From an uncultured Eubacteriales bacterium (GTDB lineage: Bacteria > Bacillota > Sulfobacillia > Fermentithermobacillales > Fermentithermobacillaceae), in the NCBI GenBank assembly GCA_964406505.1, contig CAYORX010000004.1:17056-81055 (forward strand): DNA of 64,000 nucleotides, read 5' to 3'. The notes beneath the pieces are model-generated. The model saw only the letters and a program-made list of their open reading frames with translations, was not told where the DNA came from and ran no database searches. Every line of letters starts with the position of its first letter. Position 1 is the stretch's first letter. The position numbers and the translations under genes were made by a program. Below, piece after piece: positions 19,968 to 44,429 of this stretch.

Positions 19968-20723
19968 TCAATCAAAATTTTCAACAGTGCGTTTTCTCCT
20001 TTTCCGATTGCCATAAACATAAATGACCAAACTGGTTCCGAGCAGTGCGATAGACACCCATTGGGCTTGACTTAATCCAAACATAAAAGCCCCGCTTTCC
20101 CTGAAAAACTCAAGAAAAAACCTTATGACCGCGTAACCCGAAATATAAATAAGGAAAAGGCCTCCTTCAAAAGCGATACTATCGAACAGTTTCAACAATA
20201 TCGCAAATAAAATGAAGTTTGCTATGCTTTCGTATATCGGATACGGATGTCTTAAACCCGGGGCGAACCTTGTAAGTACTCCCCATTGCCCATTAGTTAA
20301 TATCCCATAGCAGCAACCGCTTAACAAACATCCTATTCTACCAATTGATTGCCCCAATGCAACCCCAGGTGCCATTATGTCAAACAACAATCCAAATCGC
20401 AGTTTTTTAAACCGACAATAAGATCCTAAAGCGATCATTCCGCTGATTAAAACGCCGTGAATAGAAAAACCACCATCTCTTACATCAAAAACTGACTGCC
20501 AGGTATGATAATCTCGTGTATTCAATGCAACATAGAGTAACCTGCCACCAGCAACTCCTGCTAAAAGCAACATGATAAAAAGTTCGAACAGCGAATCTGG
20601 ATCGACTCCCTTTTTTCGAGCCATGTTGCTAGCTACTGTCACACCCAAAACATATCCAATGCCCACCATAAGCCCATAAGAATAAAATTCTATTCCGCCA
20701 ATGGTGAAAAGAACTGGCTTCAT
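19968..20723 (-). CDS. lgt: Prolipoprotein diacylglyceryl transferase
   Basis: Lgt family membrane protein (MKPVLFTIGGIEFYSYGLM...). The preferred start is the ATG at 20723 with a GAGGTG RBS; the track ORF starts at 20744. Confidence 0.88.
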   Translation of the reverse strand: MKPVLFTIGGIEFYSYGLMVGIGYVLGVTVASNMARKKGVDPDSLFELFIMLLLAGVAGGRLLYVALNTRDYHTWQSVFDVRDGGFSIHGVLISGMIALGSYCRFKKLRFGLLFDIMAPGVALGQSIGRIGCLLSGCCYGILTNGQWGVLTRFAPGLRHPYPIYESIANFILFAILLKLFDSIAFEGGLFLIYISGYAVIRFFLEFFRESGAFMFGLSQAQWVSIALLGTSLVIYVYGNRKRRKRTVENFD

Positions 20724-20817
20724 ACGATCACCTCTCTCAATCATACCATTTCAGAATAAATACATACCATTAAATACATGCTATCAGCATAGAACACGAA
20801 ACACCGGGAGGGCAACT

Positions 20818-21237
20818 ATGACATCGCAAGGACAACGATTCGGATATGTTTTTATCGGGTTTTTGATAGGTATGTGTCTGTCAGTAGGTGCATGGCTAGG
20901 TTTAGCTAATTATGCGCCTAGCTACCTGCTTGGTTGGCAGAAGACACTAACAAAAACCGAATTAGAGCAACAACATGGATTAAATGCACAAATTGTTCCG
21001 GAATCAAATATGATTAAATCAATAATTCAAGATATTCTTACTTCTGAACAAGGTAAGGCCATAGTCAACGAACTTATACAAACTCAAGGACCTGAAATAT
21101 TGAAGCAAATGCTCGAAGAGTCGATAAACTCGCCAGAGTTTCGAGCGACTCTTGGAAAAGCGATAAACACTTTTTTAAAAACGCCTGAAGGAAAACAACT
21201 AATAAAACAAATAGCAAATGAAATTCTTACGCCGTAA
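20818..21237 (+). CDS. Hypothetical membrane-anchored protein
   Basis: The ATG at 20818 is preceded by GGGAGGG. It has an N-terminal TM helix and a helical C-terminal domain. The upstream part of the track ORF overlaps lgt and was discarded. Confidence 0.45.
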   Translation: MTSQGQRFGYVFIGFLIGMCLSVGAWLGLANYAPSYLLGWQKTLTKTELEQQHGLNAQIVPESNMIKSIIQDILTSEQGKAIVNELIQTQGPEILKQMLEESINSPEFRATLGKAINTFLKTPEGKQLIKQIANEILTP

Positions 21238-21250
21238 GACGTTTGGACCT

Positions 21251-21985
21251 TTAGGCTGAAACATCGGGCTTAGGCATGCTCGCCAAAATTTGCTTGGCAT
21301 CTAGCCTTTCTTCAACCATATCATCAGATAAAATTTTGCCGTCACGCAGCGTAACCACTCTTTCGGAATGCCTAGCAATATCGGGATCATGGGTCACTAA
21401 TACAATGGTTATTCCTTGTTCATGAAGTTTTTGAAAAATCAACATGATTTCTTCGCCTGAACGAGAATCAAGGTTACCGGTAGGTTCATCAGCTAAAATT
21501 AGTTTTGGGCCTCCTACTATAGCCCTCGCTACAGCTACCCTTTGCTGTTCACCACCTGATAATTCATTAGGCCTATGTCGAGTCCTTTTGGATAAACCCA
21601 CCATTTCTAACGCTTTTATTGATTTCTCCCGTCGCTTGGCTGCGTTCATCCCTCTGTATATCAAAGGTAGTTCTACATTCGATGTTGCATCGATCCGTGA
21701 TAACAGATTATAAGACTGAAAAATAAATCCTAGACTTCTATTTCGGATATCAGCCAATTGATTATCAGATTTTTTGCTGATATCGTCACCGTCAAAATAA
21801 TAATCGCCGGAAGTTGGACGATCAAGACATCCTAAAATATTCATTAAAGTCGACTTACCTGAACCGGATGGTCCCATTATCGCGACAAATTGTCCTTTGG
21901 GAATTTCAAGATCAATTTCTCTCAGTGCAGGAACTTTTACCTTACCCATCTTATATTGCTTAATTATTTTATTGATCTTTATCAT
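21251..21985 (-). CDS. ABC transporter ATP-binding protein, MacB/LolD/FtsE-like, with no adjacent permease
   Basis: Walker A GPSGSGKST, ABC signature LSGGEQQR, Walker B ILADEPTGNLD. Preferred start is MIKINK (21985) with a GGAG RBS. Confidence 0.88.
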   Translation of the reverse strand: MIKINKIIKQYKMGKVKVPALREIDLEIPKGQFVAIMGPSGSGKSTLMNILGCLDRPTSGDYYFDGDDISKKSDNQLADIRNRSLGFIFQSYNLLSRIDATSNVELPLIYRGMNAAKRREKSIKALEMVGLSKRTRHRPNELSGGEQQRVAVARAIVGGPKLILADEPTGNLDSRSGEEIMLIFQKLHEQGITIVLVTHDPDIARHSERVVTLRDGKILSDDMVEERLDAKQILASMPKPDVSA

Positions 21986-22183
21986 ATTACACACTCCACA
22001 TTCAAATTCGCTATAAATAAAACTGCACGACTTTTTATCACCCGACCTAACCGGAAAAGGATACATGATAGTTCACATTAAACTTTCAACTTACCTCACC
22101 GGAGGCCGGGCGTCTCATTTACGATCACTTCATTCATTGACGTAGCATATACCAAAGAGTTCCATCTTGTTTTGTTCTAGCAT

Positions 22184-24811
22184 CTATTGAACAATTCCCG
22201 AAGCTAACACGTCGACATTCTGTGATGTAATGTATGTATTTGTAATTCTAACCACTTTATTCTCCAACTCATAGGCAATAGTCAATCTAACCGCCCAAAA
22301 CACTGTAAATTCGCCTGAACGCTCCCAAATCACATAAAATTTGTCGCCTGGATCGCATTCAATATTCGTAACTTGCGCATCGTCAGGTAGATTCCAGGTT
22401 ACTTTACCCGAAAACAGCCCCTGTTTACCTACAACCCATTTCTTGGGGCCTGAAAGATCCAATTTCACTTCCGGAGGTATTACGCTTTTACACTCGAATT
22501 CATAAACCTCAGGTTCTTCACCATCTATTGTCACATCCCAATTCTTTTCAATCAACGGGTCACCGTGGTTATCTACTGATATTGCCCGAACAGAATACGT
22601 GCCTTTGGCTAAAAACTTGTGTGATACTTTCAAATGGGGCTGCCCTTGAATTATCAATGTCTCACCGTCTCCGAAATCAAGTTCCCAATATAAATGGTAG
22701 GTTTCATCGGGTTTCCACAAAGTTGTATGTTTTGATCTGTAAACCACCCTTACTTGTGGTATGTCTTCATCATCTATTCCGCCAAACCCCGGGGCAAATT
22801 CTTCATCATCTCCAATTTCCAGATCAGGTCCAGGTTCCCAGGGAATATCGCCCGTCCCTATACCGGGACCTTCATCTTGCCAACCTCCCGAGTTCCCGGA
22901 ACCCGGCGCGAGCGCTTCTACTCCGGCCCAAGCATCGCAATGTATCTCTTGTTCAAAAACAGATTCAACTTTGCCCCCCGGAGTATATGGATTTAAATTT
23001 CCCTGCCTGATTAACCGTAAACCGAGCCTGTAAGATTTAGTTTTTAACATGATATCTGTTTTAGAGCCACCTCGAATCACTTCGCTCATGCCCTGAATGG
23101 GGGTCCATCGAGTACCATCATACCCTTCAACCCAGATTGCACATCTCCAGCCTTCCGGTAGCGACGAAGTTCGAATAGAAATGTCAAAAACCTGATCAGG
23201 CGACACATCCCAAGGAACTGCAACATAAAGTGGATGCCAACTGGAAACTTGTAATTGTTCTGTTTGACGGTCTTTAATCAAAATCTCCTGATCTTTCATA
23301 GAATCTGATAAGAAGGATAATATGCTGTTGTAGACGCGTTCATCTTTTAAGATATTTAAATGTGAAGGCGATAAAAACCCCGAAAACACTCGAATTATAT
23401 CTCTGGGTCCCTGGGGTGAAATAGATGAATCAACTTCGCAAAAAAAGTTGTTAGGACCCACTTGTGGCCATACTACACTCAGCAAATTGGTTACCCGACC
23501 TGTAATATTTATGAAACGGGTTTTCCGGCAAGCAGCGGCTGAGTAGGAGTGGTCATTCATAGATTGAAGATAACAGTTAGCAGGTACCCTTTGGAATCGT
23601 TGACCAACAGATGTCCCCAGGTTGATCAGCACATCTTCTTTGGAAAGCCTCCTTAAGATAACATTTTCTACATTATCCAAATACCCGATCGAACCGATAA
23701 TGCTATCTGTAATGATTTTCTGCAATTCAGCTTTTACAGTCACCAGTGCTTTTTTAGTGAAATGAATAAGCGTTTTAAGACCATAATGAATGGCTGCATC
23801 TTTAATGTCTGTGGGTATATAATCAGATGCAAATAAACTTTGAGCTAGACTGCCCGCGGACGCTGTTCTGATCACGTATTGATTTTTGCCTACAGCCATG
23901 GCTAATATTTCGTAATACGCAGTTGAAAAATCTCGGCCTTTATCAGGTAAATTGTTAAAGTCAATCATAGGCACACAACCAAGGGGGGGATCCTTAGCAT
24001 GTTCGATACAATTTCGCCATAGTAGCGGCCGGTTTTGCTGTATCCATCCTGCAAAAGTTTGCTTAGGCGAATCTACCGGTACATAGGGTAACATCAAGAA
24101 TCGTTCTTGTACGTATTGGCTATACAATGGTTCATAAATTTCCCTAGCTCTTTTAGATACCCACCAAGTTTCGCTTTCCCAATCAAACTTATCGGTGCCG
24201 ATGAACAAAGGTAAATCGCCCGCACTATTTACAGATTGCACCTCTAAAACTCCACTTACTTCACCAAACGGAGAAAAACGCGCCGATCTCGTTTCTTTTT
24301 CAAACATATGTTCATGTTTTACAACGTTATATGCTTGAAACATGAAATCTGCCAGAAACGAACCTCTTTGAGGCGTACTGAGCATAATCGCATTGTCTAT
24401 CAAACCATCTTGAATAATGCCAAGCTCAATGCCAAATCTCAATACAAGCCCAGAAACTCCATATGTAATTACGTTTAGCAAAGTAGATTTTGTAGTAACA
24501 GCAACTTGCTGCAAATACTTATGTAATACATAGACTCCTGAATCAAGATCGTAATAGGGTTCATCGGGAGTGAACACAAACAAGTTCGTTTCAAGTTCAT
24601 ACCCTGAATTTTGAAGTCGAGAAATCAACCCGCTTTTACCCCACAAACTTAGTTTAACTTCATCAACGCCGCCTTTCACAGGTTCCGAAATTAACACCAA
24701 AGGGGCCCTAACCCCATGGCTTTGGGCAGTCTCCCCGAACGAAGGCACCCCAAAATTTAACAAAACACAAACACATACCACAATTCCGATGGTATCTTGC
24801 ACGCGGTTCAT
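22184..24811 (-). CDS. Large secreted protein with a C-terminal PKD domain and an N-terminal hydrolase-like region of unknown function
   Basis: Preferred start is MNRVQDT at 24811 with RBS AAGGAAAAGG, followed by a signal peptide (IVVCVCVLLNFGVPSFG). The track ORF starts at 24853. PKD motif WELDFGDGE...YSVRAISVDNHGDP, Gly/Asp/Pro-rich linkers, and a central region with no recognisable family. Confidence 0.6.
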   Translation of the reverse strand: MNRVQDTIGIVVCVCVLLNFGVPSFGETAQSHGVRAPLVLISEPVKGGVDEVKLSLWGKSGLISRLQNSGYELETNLFVFTPDEPYYDLDSGVYVLHKYLQQVAVTTKSTLLNVITYGVSGLVLRFGIELGIIQDGLIDNAIMLSTPQRGSFLADFMFQAYNVVKHEHMFEKETRSARFSPFGEVSGVLEVQSVNSAGDLPLFIGTDKFDWESETWWVSKRAREIYEPLYSQYVQERFLMLPYVPVDSPKQTFAGWIQQNRPLLWRNCIEHAKDPPLGCVPMIDFNNLPDKGRDFSTAYYEILAMAVGKNQYVIRTASAGSLAQSLFASDYIPTDIKDAAIHYGLKTLIHFTKKALVTVKAELQKIITDSIIGSIGYLDNVENVILRRLSKEDVLINLGTSVGQRFQRVPANCYLQSMNDHSYSAAACRKTRFINITGRVTNLLSVVWPQVGPNNFFCEVDSSISPQGPRDIIRVFSGFLSPSHLNILKDERVYNSILSFLSDSMKDQEILIKDRQTEQLQVSSWHPLYVAVPWDVSPDQVFDISIRTSSLPEGWRCAIWVEGYDGTRWTPIQGMSEVIRGGSKTDIMLKTKSYRLGLRLIRQGNLNPYTPGGKVESVFEQEIHCDAWAGVEALAPGSGNSGGWQDEGPGIGTGDIPWEPGPDLEIGDDEEFAPGFGGIDDEDIPQVRVVYRSKHTTLWKPDETYHLYWELDFGDGETLIIQGQPHLKVSHKFLAKGTYSVRAISVDNHGDPLIEKNWDVTIDGEEPEVYEFECKSVIPPEVKLDLSGPKKWVVGKQGLFSGKVTWNLPDDAQVTNIECDPGDKFYVIWERSGEFTVFWAVRLTIAYELENKVVRITNTYITSQNVDVLASGIVQ

Positions 24812-24849
24812 AACCTTTTCTTTAGGCAATACATGCCCAGGGCTCTTTG

Positions 24850-25527
24850 TCATTGATAAATCTCCGCCTTTACCCCCGATTTAGGCCACAACCCTCTATT
24901 TGCGATAGCTAAACGAGTTGCCGGATAATTTAAATCAAAACATCTTTGCAATTCTTCTTGCCATTTCTCAGCCGTAATTCGTCTCGGTCCGGTTGGTTCA
25001 AGCACCAACAGTTCTGCCCAAGATTCGCCTGGCGCAAGCTTAATCTTTTCAGAACCGTAGTTTATATGTACCGTTCCATCTCGCCTAGCTCTTTGGACGG
25101 TTAATTTTCCCCGAACAACCCTCGCCTGGTTGTTCACAAGTTCTATTATATTTCCATCAATATCAGGTGCGGTTGAAGACACCGGCGCAGGGAGATTTAA
25201 CGTTGTTCTGCCCATCCGCGAAAAGGTTAAAGATTCGTCAAACTCCACACCTTGGGACAAGGCGCTGTAATGAATCCCCAAACATACACCAAACAGGTTG
25301 ACCTTTTTAGGTACGAAAAGCATTTTTTCGTCAGCGTCGATGAAAATTTGCGAATTCTCAGGTGTGATAAGAGGCCAACCGGTAAGCGCGTTTAATGAAG
25401 ATTCTTGAATAGTTAAAAAAACGAACTGGTCAGATGACCAATTCAACCTTGACAACACGAAAACTAACATTATACATACGACAACAGATAAAACTACTTT
25501 AAGGATAAGGTTAATACGGTTTTTCAC
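24850..25527 (-). CDS. Hypothetical membrane-anchored protein, first gene of the operon with the PKD protein
   Basis: GTG start preceded by GGGGGAG. N-terminal TM helix and an extracytoplasmic domain. Stop overlaps the downstream track ORF. Confidence 0.5.
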   Translation of the reverse strand: MKNRINLILKVVLSVVVCIMLVFVLSRLNWSSDQFVFLTIQESSLNALTGWPLITPENSQIFIDADEKMLFVPKKVNLFGVCLGIHYSALSQGVEFDESLTFSRMGRTTLNLPAPVSSTAPDIDGNIIELVNNQARVVRGKLTVQRARRDGTVHINYGSEKIKLAPGESWAELLVLEPTGPRRITAEKWQEELQRCFDLNYPATRLAIANRGLWPKSGVKAEIYQ

Positions 25528-25707
25528 TCAAACTCCCCCACTAATACGATTTATTTTAAGTGAGGGCCTGTATGTACAAATGATAAATGCAACAACAAAG
25601 TTACGACATACATACAAACGGCCCGAGTCTAATAACACGCATTGCATCGTGCTTTAATACCACCGGGCCCTTCGCAATATACATTATATCACATTAAAAC
25701 CGTTTAA

Positions 25708-27267
25708 TTACAAATTTTTGCGGTATAAATGGAAAGATTTTTTGATAATCGGTTTAATATTTGCATACACTTTACCTTTTTCTGCATCTTGCTCGTCAAC
25801 CCACATTACCTCGGTAGTTTCACCCGGTTGCAATTTGGTTTCGCCATCGATTTGTTTCATAACATAATAATAGACGGTTTTTTCTACTGGAACATTGCGT
25901 TCATCAAGAAAATGATATACGGTTCGACCTGCTAAAGCGACTAACCTACATATTATCCCAGTTTCTTCTTTAACTTCTCTGATAGCTGCTTGTTCAATAT
26001 TTTCTCTTTGTTCTACATGCCCCTTTGGTAAAGTTATAAATCCGAACCTATCTCTTATCATAAGTATCTGCAATTTACCGCCATGATCTCGAATCACAGC
26101 CCCGCCAGCACACATCTGATAGCTATCTGGCCGCTTAAGCAGCATAACGCGCATCAAACCAGCAACTTGCCTAGCAGCAAACGGCAATGTAAATTGGGTG
26201 TTTTCAATGGTTTCTTCGACCGTACCTGGACCTAAAGTGCTGTCAAAAATAGAACAAAACTCTTCAGGGTGTTGGCCGACAACATCTTTTCCAACGCTAC
26301 CACCTAACACTATGGTAGGTACCCCGTGAGCACGTCCCACTACAGCTACAGCATGGGGTACTTTTCCTTTTTGGGTTTGGGAATCAACTTTACCTTCTCC
26401 GGTTATGATGAAATCGGCTTTTGCGATCTGTTTTGCACAACCGGTTTCCTCGATAATAAATTCCGCTCCAGAAACCACCGCCGCATTAAAAAACGCCCAA
26501 AGTGACGCCGCTAAACCTCCACCGGCACCTGCACCAGGTAGCGAACGCGGATCACGGCCTAGATTTTTCGATAATATAGCGCCGTATCGATCCATGTATT
26601 TATCAACTTGGGCGATTTTATCGGCAGGTATTCCTTTTTGAGGACCATAAGTGCTGGTAGCTCCTTCTTCACCGATCAAAACATTTTTTACGTCACAAAG
26701 GGCTACCACTTCAACATCGCTAAATTTTTTGGGAATGTCGTGAGGCTCGACGCTAACGACATTTTTCAGTCCTAAAATACCGAATTCAACCTGATTCCCT
26801 TTATCGTCAAGTATTTTGCCACCTGCGGCTTGAGCCATTCCTATACCACCATCATTTATTGCTGTACCGCCTACTCCGATAATTATACGTCGGGCACCTT
26901 GATTTACTGCCCAAACCATGAGTTCACCGACCCCGTAACTCGTGGCAGAAAACACATCGCGCTTGTGAGGCGATGTTAGCGCAAGTCCCGAACAATTCGC
27001 ACTTTCTATCACCGCATCACCGTTGGAAAGTATCCCAACCTTTGCAGTTATCATCTCACCGTAAGGTCCTACCACTTCGATATTCTGAACTTTACCACCT
27101 TTGGCTGCTATCAAAACATCAATGGTACCATCGCCACCGTCAGCAAGAGGTGTTTTCACAAGGTTGGCTTCTGGGAACCCTAGCTCAAATCCTTGTTTAA
27201 CCAATGAGCATGCTTCAGATGCAGTCAGGCAGCCTTTAAATGCGTTCATTGCAATTACCGCATCCAT
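25708..27267 (-). CDS. Glycerate kinase (GlxK family) fused to a C-terminal NUDIX hydrolase domain
   Basis: Residues ~1-375 match glycerate kinase (ADGGDGT, GAGAAGG motifs). Residues ~380-519 carry a perfect Nudix box GHVEQRENIEQAAIREVKEETGI. A single uninterrupted reading frame. Confidence 0.8.
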   Translation of the reverse strand: MDAVIAMNAFKGCLTASEACSLVKQGFELGFPEANLVKTPLADGGDGTIDVLIAAKGGKVQNIEVVGPYGEMITAKVGILSNGDAVIESANCSGLALTSPHKRDVFSATSYGVGELMVWAVNQGARRIIIGVGGTAINDGGIGMAQAAGGKILDDKGNQVEFGILGLKNVVSVEPHDIPKKFSDVEVVALCDVKNVLIGEEGATSTYGPQKGIPADKIAQVDKYMDRYGAILSKNLGRDPRSLPGAGAGGGLAASLWAFFNAAVVSGAEFIIEETGCAKQIAKADFIITGEGKVDSQTQKGKVPHAVAVVGRAHGVPTIVLGGSVGKDVVGQHPEEFCSIFDSTLGPGTVEETIENTQFTLPFAARQVAGLMRVMLLKRPDSYQMCAGGAVIRDHGGKLQILMIRDRFGFITLPKGHVEQRENIEQAAIREVKEETGIICRLVALAGRTVYHFLDERNVPVEKTVYYYVMKQIDGETKLQPGETTEVMWVDEQDAEKGKVYANIKPIIKKSFHLYRKNL

Positions 27268-42573: not shown

Positions 42574-43815
42574 TCAGGTCCGTTTTTGAAGCACACTTCT
42601 AATCCCAAAATACCCAAGTGCTAAAACCAAAACCATAGGAGCTATCTTGGCGGTGAACATAAACATATCCTGCCATGCTTTAAGAAAAGTTTTCCATATA
42701 TTGGCCCAAGGTGATGGAATGGGTTGGCTAGCACCTTCTTCTATTATCGTCAAAGATAAAAATGACATGGCAGAAGATTTTTCTAACAAAGCTCGCCTTC
42801 CCTCCATACTTTCAATATCAGCTCTTACTCGAGACAGTTCCCCTTCTACCTGGAGCAATTCACCTACTGTTGACGCGTTCCCAAGGATTTGTAACAATCG
42901 TTGTTCTTGTTGAATTTTGTTTTGTGTCCTTGCGTTAAGATCTACATATTGTTCCGTAACATCTTCTACAGAACTGTCTGATCGGGTAACCTCACCGAAA
43001 GATGATATGTCTTCGATTGCCTTATCTAAATTTTCTGATGGTACTCTCGCTGTCATATAAAAAACGGTTGATTTACGTTTGTCTTGAGACAATGACATAG
43101 AAGACGATTCAATATACCCCTGATTTGAGCGGACAACGTGTGTAGTTTGTTCTGAAACCGGACCTACTTCACCTCGTGAAACTTCAAGAGATAAGTTTGC
43201 ACGTTTAATGAGTTTACGATCTACATCCATAACGTTCGCCATAATAAAATCGTTCATATCAGAAGACAAATTCAAGTCTGGTTGAATCAAGTGTTTTTGA
43301 GCTATATCGTAAGATTCATCTGGCGACTCAAACGACTCAGAGGCTGAAGGTGCCTGGATATTATCACCCATGGGGCCGAAATTCCTCATGCCTTCTGAAA
43401 TACCTTGTGTAGTTTTGGGAAAACCATAACGGTTCACGAAAAATAACGTGCCCCCGGAAGAAATTATCATGATGACGAGACATGCCGCTATAACAAAACT
43501 TGCAGTTCTCAACTTCCCCCGCATTATGGATGGCATTTTAAAACCAGACCAAATGCGTTTAGACGAACCTATGTTTTTAAACTGCTTTTGATCATGAGTT
43601 TGGGTCACAGCACTCATAATTTGGGCATGTAATCGGCTTGGAAATTCAAGTTCGGGGAGAGACCTTAGAGCTGTTTTGACATGCTGGACACCTTCTAACT
43701 CGCGTCGGCAACGTTCACAACGTTCTAAATGTTCCTTGACTAAATTATGGGTATCAGAATTTAGTTCCCCGTCTAAATACGATGACAAAAGTTCGGTAAC
43801 ATCACAGCAAGTCAT
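42574..43815 (-). CDS. Anti-sigma factor: N-terminal zinc-finger (ZAS, HxxxCxxC) domain fused to a TM segment and an extracytoplasmic DUF4349 domain
   Basis: N-terminal motif EHLERCERCRRELEG, one TM helix (FVIAACLVIMIIS), a C-terminal coiled-coil DUF4349-like region and a terminal TM. Overlaps the upstream sigma factor gene by 4 nt. Confidence 0.65.
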   Translation of the reverse strand: MTCCDVTELLSSYLDGELNSDTHNLVKEHLERCERCRRELEGVQHVKTALRSLPELEFPSRLHAQIMSAVTQTHDQKQFKNIGSSKRIWSGFKMPSIMRGKLRTASFVIAACLVIMIISSGGTLFFVNRYGFPKTTQGISEGMRNFGPMGDNIQAPSASESFESPDESYDIAQKHLIQPDLNLSSDMNDFIMANVMDVDRKLIKRANLSLEVSRGEVGPVSEQTTHVVRSNQGYIESSSMSLSQDKRKSTVFYMTARVPSENLDKAIEDISSFGEVTRSDSSVEDVTEQYVDLNARTQNKIQQEQRLLQILGNASTVGELLQVEGELSRVRADIESMEGRRALLEKSSAMSFLSLTIIEEGASQPIPSPWANIWKTFLKAWQDMFMFTAKIAPMVLVLALGYFGIRSVLQKRT

Positions 43816-44429
43816 TTGCCATCCCCCCTTTCGTCTTGTTTGACGTTAGGCGGGAAGATTTGTTCCTCATCTATTAATTTTCTCACAATATTCCTTGCTC
43901 TATGAATTCTCGACTTTACGGTGCCCAAAGATATGTTCAATATTTCAGAAATTTCTTGATATGAATAACCTTGAACATCACATAAAATTAAAACTACGCG
44001 GTAATGAAAATCTAGATCATTTAGAATGTCTAACACTTTTTCACCGAGTAATCTAGTTTCGACAACTTTTTCGGTGTTTTTTTCTAAATCTTCTACCTGT
44101 CGTTGAACTTCTGAGTCAGACAAAATTATAGGCGCATCTAAAGAATAAATCTGAACTTTTTTACGTTTGCGCAAATGGTCCAGAGAGGTATTGACGCAAA
44201 TTCTGTATATCCAGGTTGAAAACTTGCTGTCTCCCCGAAATCTAGGCAAAGCTTTATATACTTTAACGAATACATCCTGTACTATATCCATAGCGTCTTC
44301 GCTATTAGATACCATGCGGACGGCTGTATTATACATTCTAGTTTCATAAGTTTCTACAAGAACTTCAAAAGCTGACATATCGCCTTCTGATGCTCTTTTG
44401 ACAATAGCTTGTTCATTCGGCAAAGACAT
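43812..44429 (-). CDS. ECF-type RNA polymerase sigma-70 factor
   Basis: Sigma-70 regions 2 and 4 (FEVLVETYETRMYNTAVRMV...; C-terminal HTH), 205 aa. Confidence 0.88.
   Translation of the reverse strand: MSLPNEQAIVKRASEGDMSAFEVLVETYETRMYNTAVRMVSNSEDAMDIVQDVFVKVYKALPRFRGDSKFSTWIYRICVNTSLDHLRKRKKVQIYSLDAPIILSDSEVQRQVEDLEKNTEKVVETRLLGEKVLDILNDLDFHYRVVLILCDVQGYSYQEISEILNISLGTVKSRIHRARNIVRKLIDEEQIFPPNVKQDERGDGK

Follow-up and report, generated by a model that had tools for sequence, protein, structure and literature searches.

A lineage-core gene pair of the Fermentithermobacillaceae predicted to encode a non-catalytic protein of lipase-type hydrolase fold and a membrane-anchored partner

What a pair of adjacent genes with no annotated function contributes to the surface of an uncultured bacterium is the question raised by the locus described here. 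The window is a 64,000-nucleotide (nt) stretch of contig CAYORX010000004.1 (assembly GCA_964406505.1) from a member of the Fermentithermobacillaceae; all coordinates below are window positions, and features lie on the minus strand unless marked otherwise. The pair consists of a small gene with a GTG start (24850-25527, 225 residues) and a large gene (22184-24853, 889 residues). Both open reading frames (ORFs) were read directly, and their sizes, start codon and strand are exactly as an earlier note on this DNA had given them. We find that the locus combines a new form of a known enzyme fold, predicted to be catalytically dead, with a partner of unknown fold, and that the two are a core pair of this uncultured family. 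The loci compared with the window are designated by L numbers; the Fermentithermobacillaceae are referred to as the close family, and L031, L032 and L034-L039 as the distant loci.

Both ORFs are real, conserved genes. The large protein is represented by 23 homologue clusters (36-63% identity, 47% mean column identity) and the small protein by 28 (52% mean column identity), all from metagenome-assembled Bacillota whose source names point to Candidatus Fermentithermobacillaceae. The two genes share a 4-base ATGA overlap, which is identical in the orthologues with gene calls listed, and the pair is read from its sequence as a translationally coupled two-gene operon. The only Pfam domain recognised in either protein is the PKD domain of the large one, and neither protein matches an NCBIfam model or a defence-system protein model of PADLOC. 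Searches of the literature on Fermentithermobacillus and on PGAP1-like/PKD proteins brought up nothing about this family.

The identity of the large protein emerges from remote homology. A profile of its residues 48-525, compared with 1.84 billion representative proteins, retrieved 497 proteins below an E value of 0.001, 94 of them below 1e-10. The stronger matches are proteins of 700-1000 residues that align over the whole hydrolase domain, and the weaker ones are canonical hydrolases with the pattern VDIVAHSMGGLVARxYI...GTPNxGS. Four distant full-length relatives (P0083, P0093, P0101 and P0112) pass the Pfam model for PGAP1, LCAT or Lipase_2 (PF07819, PF02450, PF01674), and three of these also pass the PKD cut-off; since they satisfy hydrolase and PKD models, they share the architecture of the large protein. 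The window protein itself passes no hydrolase model of Pfam or NCBIfam, and the cluster names of ten distant relatives read only "hypothetical protein". Residues 48-165 and 405-520 form the core of an alpha/beta-hydrolase fold of the lipase type (PGAP1/LCAT/Lipase_2-like). The stretch of about 600 residues in which the earlier note saw no recognisable family therefore has to be redescribed, by profile homology and structural model, as a lipase-type alpha/beta-hydrolase domain.

Most of the catalytic apparatus of this fold has been replaced. The segment YGVSGL (residues 131-136), previously remarked on as lipase-like without a strict GxSxG, is indeed present and aligns without gaps to the nucleophile elbow of the canonical hydrolases (A-H-S-M-G-G-L-V-A-R with A-Y-G-V-S-G-L-V-L-R), so that the position of the catalytic Ser is taken by the invariant G132, and S134 falls two residues later at the "small residue" position. 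The AlphaFold model agrees with this register, placing a strand at 126-131, a helix from 133 and G132 at the turn between them. Alignment columns were counted over 23 distant relatives that keep the Ser, 21 other distant relatives and 32 close-family representatives (31 for the oxyanion position). The nucleophile column is Ser in 23 of the 23 Ser-keeping relatives and Gly in 32 of the 32 close-family proteins, none of which has Ser. The column of the catalytic Asp after beta7 (N469) is Asp throughout both distant groups (23/23 and 21/21), and in the close family it is Asp in 16 and Asn in 15 of 32. The catalytic His column after beta8 (H500) is likewise His in all 23 Ser-keeping relatives, and is divided in the close family among His (7/32), Tyr (13), Gly (8) and Arg (4). 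The oxyanion position after beta3 (S56-E57-P58) is HG in 18 of the 23 Ser-keeping relatives; in the close family E57 is found in 30 and P58 in 29 of 31 sequences, and the HG is not just degraded but replaced by a newly conserved (S/G)-E-P. With G132, N469, S56-E57-P58 and H500, the window protein has thus lost three of the four catalytic elements and kept the His. On the evidence of these columns the hydrolase domain is predicted to be catalytically dead. Replacement of the Ser nucleophile, the Asp and the oxyanion HG leaves the earlier suggestion of a polymer-degrading enzyme without support.

The Ser is missing also from 21 of the 44 distant representatives, or about half of the wider family. 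Its loss there was either independent or ancestral, and the architecture and the membrane partner were kept. Taken together, the catalytic loss and the many invariant residues of the cap (described below) are the signature of a pseudo-enzyme with a retained non-hydrolytic function. We also considered D475 as a catalytic acid and rejected it, because its column is unconserved in the Ser-keeping relatives, whereas that of N469 is invariably Asp.

The layout of the large protein was taken from an AlphaFold model (23-sequence alignment; mean predicted local distance difference test score, pLDDT, 72.9) and from the alignment. Residues 1-44 (24722-24853) have by inspection the form of a Sec-type signal peptide, with a basic n-region, a hydrophobic core at residues 22-36 and a cleavage site of the ETA/AxA type. 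The model has a helix at residues 12-34, and the n/h/c layout, with small residues at -3 and -1 (ETA, AEA, ASA, ATA and others), is kept across 22 orthologues in the alignment, again by inspection; there is no lipobox at the N-terminus. The protein is therefore best read as probably exported by Sec. The N-terminal half of the hydrolase core (residues 48-165; 24359-24712) carries the oxyanion position, the nucleophile position and a TPQRGSF motif, and the C-terminal half (residues 405-520; 23294-23641) carries, by column statistics, the Asp and His positions. Between them, the secondary structure of the model shows a helical insertion, or cap, of about 240 residues between beta6 and beta7 (residues 166-404; 23642-24358), whose alignment columns are rich in invariant Trp, Tyr, Glu and Arg (W225, E228, W231, R235, E241-P242-L243, Y313-Y314-E315 and others).

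Three beta domains follow. The first is a beta-sandwich (residues 523-648; 22910-23287), defined by AlphaFold strands over the same residues at a pLDDT of about 77-90. It is joined by a disordered Gly/Asp/Pro-rich linker of variable length (residues 650-696; 22766-22906; pLDDT <50, with gap-rich, unconserved columns) to the PKD domain (residues 700-776; 22526-22756). The latter has strands over residues 700-776 at a pLDDT of about 90, matches PF00801 at residues 712-757 (27.4 bits against a cut-off of 23.5) and has profile matches to the PKD domains of ColH and PKD1. The C-terminal domain is a second beta-sandwich (residues 782-883; 22205-22510; pLDDT 85-93), and the C-terminus, read directly, contains no LPXTG, SLH or other wall-anchor motif. 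The PKD domain and the Gly/Asp/Pro-rich linker had both been recognised in the earlier note, as had the signal peptide of the large protein and the N-terminal transmembrane (TM) helix of the small one, with which the model helices (12-34 and 2-31, respectively) and the conserved n/h/c layout are consistent.

For the small protein, AlphaFold gives a confident model with a helix at residues 2-31, which would correspond to the N-terminal TM helix, and an all-beta extracytoplasmic domain containing one helix; its C-terminal motif YPATRLAIANRGLWPKSGVK is conserved. Compared with the structures of the PDB, the model has no fold match. It points to a type II (N-in, C-out) single-pass membrane protein with an ectodomain of no known fold. 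None of the 28 relatives matches Pfam, and a protein search with the widened small-protein alignment brought nothing new, neither fusions nor annotations. One distant locus (L031, 2354-2962) has, immediately upstream of the true partner gene, a second and very weak paralogue of the small protein (E 2e-5).

The two genes belong together. In all 28 of the Fermentithermobacillaceae loci whose sequence extends into the upstream flank, the small gene lies directly upstream of the large one; the pair is single-copy, and the 12-kilobase (kb) block containing it is syntenic in all sampled genomes of the family (26 GTDB species genomes). The order in the family is M19 peptidase, glycerate kinase/NUDIX, small gene, large gene, ABC ATPase and then, on the opposite strand, a small ORF and Lgt. 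Because the whole block is syntenic, adjacency within the family alone proves little, and the decisive evidence for the pair as a unit comes from the distant loci, where the genomic context is different. In five of seven distant loci (L031, L034/L035, L036, L037 and L039), a small-protein homologue is encoded directly upstream of the large gene, with HMM E values of 2e-29 to 6e-18 and, for L031, an hhalign probability of 99.4%. Loci whose large protein keeps the Ser (L031, L034, L039) and loci in which the Ser is lost (L036, L037) alike have the partner, whose role is therefore independent of catalysis. The expectation that the pair would be conserved together thus held, even among distant relatives. 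The description of the pair as accessory machinery did not: the syntenic block and a G+C content across the pair (0.41-0.42) equal to that of the rest of the window mark it as lineage-core in the Fermentithermobacillaceae. In L030 (6144-10275) the small, large and ATPase genes are each split into several fragments, which reflects either pseudogenisation or frameshift errors of the assembly.

Several further observations concern the genes around the pair. The upstream gene (25708-27267) encodes a glycerate kinase with a NUDIX hydrolase domain fused to its C-terminus, an arrangement that is conserved across the family, and in L037 a stand-alone NUDIX homologue (E 1.9e-19) lies just upstream of the pair. 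The small ORF on the plus strand (20701-21237, likely start 20818) adjoins lgt and has a weak match to GerD (PF17898, E 5e-4, below the cut-off); its orthologues have a lipobox-like L-x-x-I-G-A-C, and a homologue in L037 (E 4.7e-6) lies two genes upstream of the pair. In three distant loci a DsbD_TM (CcdA-like) gene follows the pair immediately or within one gene (L031, 6194-7496; L034, 9345-9923; L036, 4583-5941). A thioredoxin/AhpC-TSA-like gene follows it in L031 and L036, and L031 and L034 have FeoB genes at a greater distance downstream. This neighbourhood could reflect shared ancestry or a link to extracytoplasmic thiol-redox chemistry.

The operon appears to have its own promoter, as the earlier note had proposed, although at a different position. 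An extended -10 element, TGATATAAT, is read directly at 25691-25683 (not at about 25650), 14 nt after the stop codon of the glycerate kinase/NUDIX gene. The exact element occurs at the equivalent position in 12 of 28 orthologous loci examined, and most others vary only at less critical positions (TGGTATAAT, TGGTAGAAT, TGATATGAT, TGGTAAATT and others) and keep TG-n-TA---T. The element or a TG-n-TA---T variant is thus present in almost all of the 28 loci, far above chance, with a single locus lacking a match. The promoter scan found no -35 hexamer match upstream of TGATATAAT, which is why a simple scan of this kind missed it. The substitution pattern is what a functional extended -10 would show, and we regard the element as a predicted promoter of the sigma-A type.

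Downstream of it, the 5' leader (25528-25682) is highly structured. A G+C-rich hairpin followed by a U-rich tract (25616-25672), resembling a terminator, begins about 5 nt after the expected start, and a motif, GCGAAGGGCCCGGTG, is located at its beginning (25675-25661). The minimum free energy of the leader is -49.3 kcal/mol (z = -2.96). The hairpin has an invariant base, GCCCGG/CCGGGC, flanked by covarying pairs, and a freely variable interior; motif and hairpin persist even at loci whose proteins share only 36-40% identity. L010, L011 and L013 have a short leader of 62-64 nt, which contains the motif and lacks the 3' half of the hairpin. In L018, where an insertion of two genes separates the small gene from the glycerate kinase gene, the -10 element and the hairpin have both remained next to the small gene, from which it follows that the hairpin belongs to the leader of the operon; the insertion rules out the alternative that it is the terminator of the glycerate kinase gene. 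This leader element may function as an attenuator, as a stabiliser of the 5' end or as an operator at the DNA level. As the signature of a regulon the motif found no support, being unique in the window and confined in the compared loci to the leader, except for two further 10-mer copies in L014. In the rest of the leader (25528-25615), a possible anti-Shine-Dalgarno (SD) sequence, CCCUCAC (25566-25560), is predicted to pair with the SD sequence GGGGGAG (25539-25533), and a second hairpin that masks the SD is predicted in seven of eight close orthologues. SD sequestration by this hairpin was not significantly above shuffled controls (0.26 versus 0.36 unpaired) and was set aside. Rfam contains no family for the leader of the window or of four orthologous loci, and no Rfam family or tRNA reaches threshold within the 64-kb window. 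Among the compared loci, L001 has a TPP riboswitch (RF00059, 310-418; 53 bits, just below the gathering score of 54.3) upstream of a gene for the thiamine transporter YuaJ.

On the other side of the pair lies the ABC ATPase gene, of the MacB/LolD/FtsE type (21251-21985); an ORF of 271 residues, extending to 22066, was listed, but the internal ATG at 21985 is the probable start. Its best matches are MacB, DarD, LolD and FtsE, all below the cut-offs. Between the large gene and the ATPase gene, outside the pair and marking its boundary, is a promoter motif of the extracytoplasmic function (ECF) sigma type, GGAAC-N16-CGTC (22139-22163), and most of the 19 orthologous intergenic regions compared retain GGAAC-N(15-21)-CGTC. 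The conserved motif ahead of the ATPase gene indicates that this gene is probably a separate, differently regulated unit. No terminator was recognised between the large gene and the ATPase gene. Gene calls and marker searches for the family loci, and a Pfam scan of the window ORFs, revealed no permease of the FtsX/MacB type, and the distant pair-bearing loci (L031, L034, L036, L037 and L039) have no MacB/LolD/FtsE-type ATPase. The ATPase as an obligate partner of the pair is therefore unsupported outside the family, five distant loci having the pair without it, and a link between the two, which the earlier note had raised as a question, does not hold there. Separately, we note a resemblance between the promoter region of the operon, TTTTAATGTGATATAATGTAT, and the sequence TTTAATGTGAACTATCATGTAT (22061-22082), which lies downstream of the ECF-type motif and ahead of the ATPase start codon. 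The window also contains an ECF sigma/anti-sigma pair (Sigma70_r2/r4; zf-HC2 + DUF4349) at 42574-44429, and a second copy of the ECF-type motif is located inside the sigma gene, just before the start of the anti-sigma gene (43842-43866).

The pair can be compared with several known systems. The core fold of the large protein is common to the PGAP1-like, LCAT and class 2 lipases (PF07819, PF02450, PF01674) and to the family I lipases (Burkholderia, Pseudomonas, Bacillus LipA), from which it differs by the changes Ser to Gly, Asp to Asn and HG to S-E-P, by the 240-residue helical insertion and by its three C-terminal beta domains. Neuroligins and other cholinesterase-like adhesion molecules are non-catalytic proteins of alpha/beta-hydrolase fold (PMC5943944; ESTHER, PMC3531081). 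By analogy, the large protein resembles them in having an extracellular alpha/beta-hydrolase domain whose triad is lost, yet which is conserved and has a presumed binding role. Unlike neuroligins, it is bacterial, belongs to the lipase/PGAP1-like branch and is paired with a dedicated membrane protein, and it is by inference that we assign it a binding function. The LipA-LipH/Lif operons of Proteobacteria encode a lipase and a membrane-anchored lipase-specific foldase (Lif) (PMC7046727, PMC13381987). Here too, a lipase-fold protein is encoded next to, and in the same orientation as, a partner that an N-terminal TM helix anchors at the outer face of the cytoplasmic membrane. The partner gene, however, lies upstream rather than downstream, its product is all-beta rather than helical and similar to Lif in neither sequence nor fold, and the client is predicted not to be an active lipase. 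As in PKD-containing surface and secreted proteins (the PKD domains of ColH; the PKD repeats of archaeal S-layers), a single canonical PKD domain (WxxDFGDG...) lies in a stalk or binding region; unlike in ColH-type proteins, it is a minor part, attached to a presumably dead hydrolase and not to an active protease or glycosidase. Compared with the type VII ABC systems (MacB/LolCDE/FtsEX), the ATPase here has no permease of the FtsX/MacB type beside it in the family loci examined, and its co-occurrence with the pair does not go beyond local synteny.

What the two proteins do is a less secure matter than what they are. We favour, with modest confidence, a lineage-core, extracytoplasmic and non-catalytic binding or scaffold complex that is held at the membrane by the small protein. 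The operon would be transcribed from the conserved extended -10 promoter through the structured leader, and the large protein would be exported by Sec to the outer face of the membrane. Since it has no lipobox, LPXTG, SLH or other anchor, it would be held there, or folded, by the membrane-anchored partner, so that the small protein may serve as an anchor or as an aid to folding. The large protein would then act as a non-hydrolytic binding or scaffold module, in which the retained pocket and the enlarged, conserved cap may bind another protein or a ligand that is lipid-like or part of the envelope, and the stalk of beta-sandwiches, linker and PKD domain may project the hydrolase domain into or through the wall. 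The descriptive part of this account, comprising fold, homology, loss of catalytic residues, the new set of conserved motifs, the conserved partner and lineage-core status, is far more secure than the functional part. A number of points weigh against it. H500, the invariant E473 and D475 and the near-invariant S134 leave room for a non-canonical active site; L032 has no partner gene, and L038 has an unrelated gene of 480 residues upstream instead; the model of the large protein is only moderate, and its signal peptide and the topology were judged by inspection only; and the complex, its localisation and its ligand are all features that we infer.

The first of these points leads to the idea that the large protein is still an enzyme, with a re-wired site (S134, H500 and E473/D475, or residues of the cap) that hydrolyses, or transfers acyl groups to or from, an envelope lipid or polymer. 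It would account for Ser or Thr at position 134 in 30 of 32 close relatives, for the (near-)invariance of E473 and D475, for the presence of H500 in the window protein and for the many invariant polar and aromatic cap residues, which point to a specific site. We think it unlikely, however, because residues flanking the elbow on either side (VD-IV-A ... GL-V-R) fix the register, making S134 the Nu+2 "small residue", because the His column is Tyr, Gly or Arg in 25 of 32 close relatives, and because the oxyanion HG is lost. It is similarly doubtful that the pair is, as originally proposed, an accessory insertion within a housekeeping region, its large protein being an adhesin or a polymer-degrading surface enzyme that the partner anchors. 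The PKD domain, the Ig-like beta-sandwiches and the flexible stalk are typical of surface binding proteins, and a membrane partner is present, so that an adhesin or binding role with an anchoring partner is possible; but the gene order is identical in all sampled family genomes, the G+C content is native, the catalytic residues are lost, and the pair is single-copy and strongly conserved. The earlier note had looked to a well-characterised enzyme family as evidence against its reading, and on this the result is divided: the fold and homology are those of lipases, and the catalytic apparatus is gone.

Two other explanations assign different roles to the partner and to the neighbours. The small protein could be a dedicated steric chaperone, a functional analogue of Lif and not an anchor, from which the large protein is released after folding. 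The large protein's nearest relatives in structure, the family I lipases, need a foldase that is anchored in the membrane and encoded in the same operon (PMC7046727, PMC13381987), and the partner is kept in Ser-retaining and Ser-lost relatives alike; yet the partner is all-beta and unrelated to the helical Lif, and the large protein has no other means of retention and would, as a released non-enzyme, have no obvious role, which makes this distinctly unlikely. Alternatively, the pair, the orphan ATPase, the GerD-like lipoprotein and Lgt could be parts of one envelope, lipoprotein or germination machine, with the pseudo-lipase as its lipid- or lipoprotein-binding component. The invariant order of these genes in the family, the GerD-like and NUDIX homologues near the pair in the distant L037 (weak support from outside the family) and the lack of a recognised terminator between the large gene and the ATPase gene are in its favour. 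Family adjacency says little, however, when the whole 12-kb region is syntenic; five distant loci have the pair but no ATPase of this kind, an FtsX-type permease is missing from the neighbourhood, a conserved ECF-type motif of its own precedes the ATPase gene and the GerD match is below the Pfam cut-off, and we consider such a machine very unlikely. Equally little credence is given to a wider conjecture, that of an envelope module of spore-forming-type Bacillota in which a non-catalytic lipase-fold receptor and its novel-fold partner would bind or hand over an acylated envelope component together with the GerD-like lipoprotein, Lgt and an ECF-controlled ATPase, expression being set by a new attenuator-like leader RNA (the conserved motif GCGAAGGGCCCGG and the hairpin).

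These results do not overturn current understanding, and with the organisms uncultured their practical impact is modest. A fold and an evolutionary origin can now be assigned to an unannotated family that comprises at least 94 representative clusters (matches at E<1e-10), those with names all coming from uncultured Bacillota. An annotation risk is corrected, since "PKD domain-containing protein" and "lipase" are both misleading names for the large protein. The small partner adds a confidently modelled domain without a relative in the PDB, and the operon leader a conserved element without an Rfam family. The wider family, about half of which has lost the catalytic Ser, would be a clean bacterial case of an extracytoplasmic pseudo-enzyme, comparable to the cholinesterase-like adhesion proteins of animals. 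For the Fermentithermobacillaceae themselves, the pair would be a housekeeping component of the envelope, and not an acquired adhesin or degradative enzyme.

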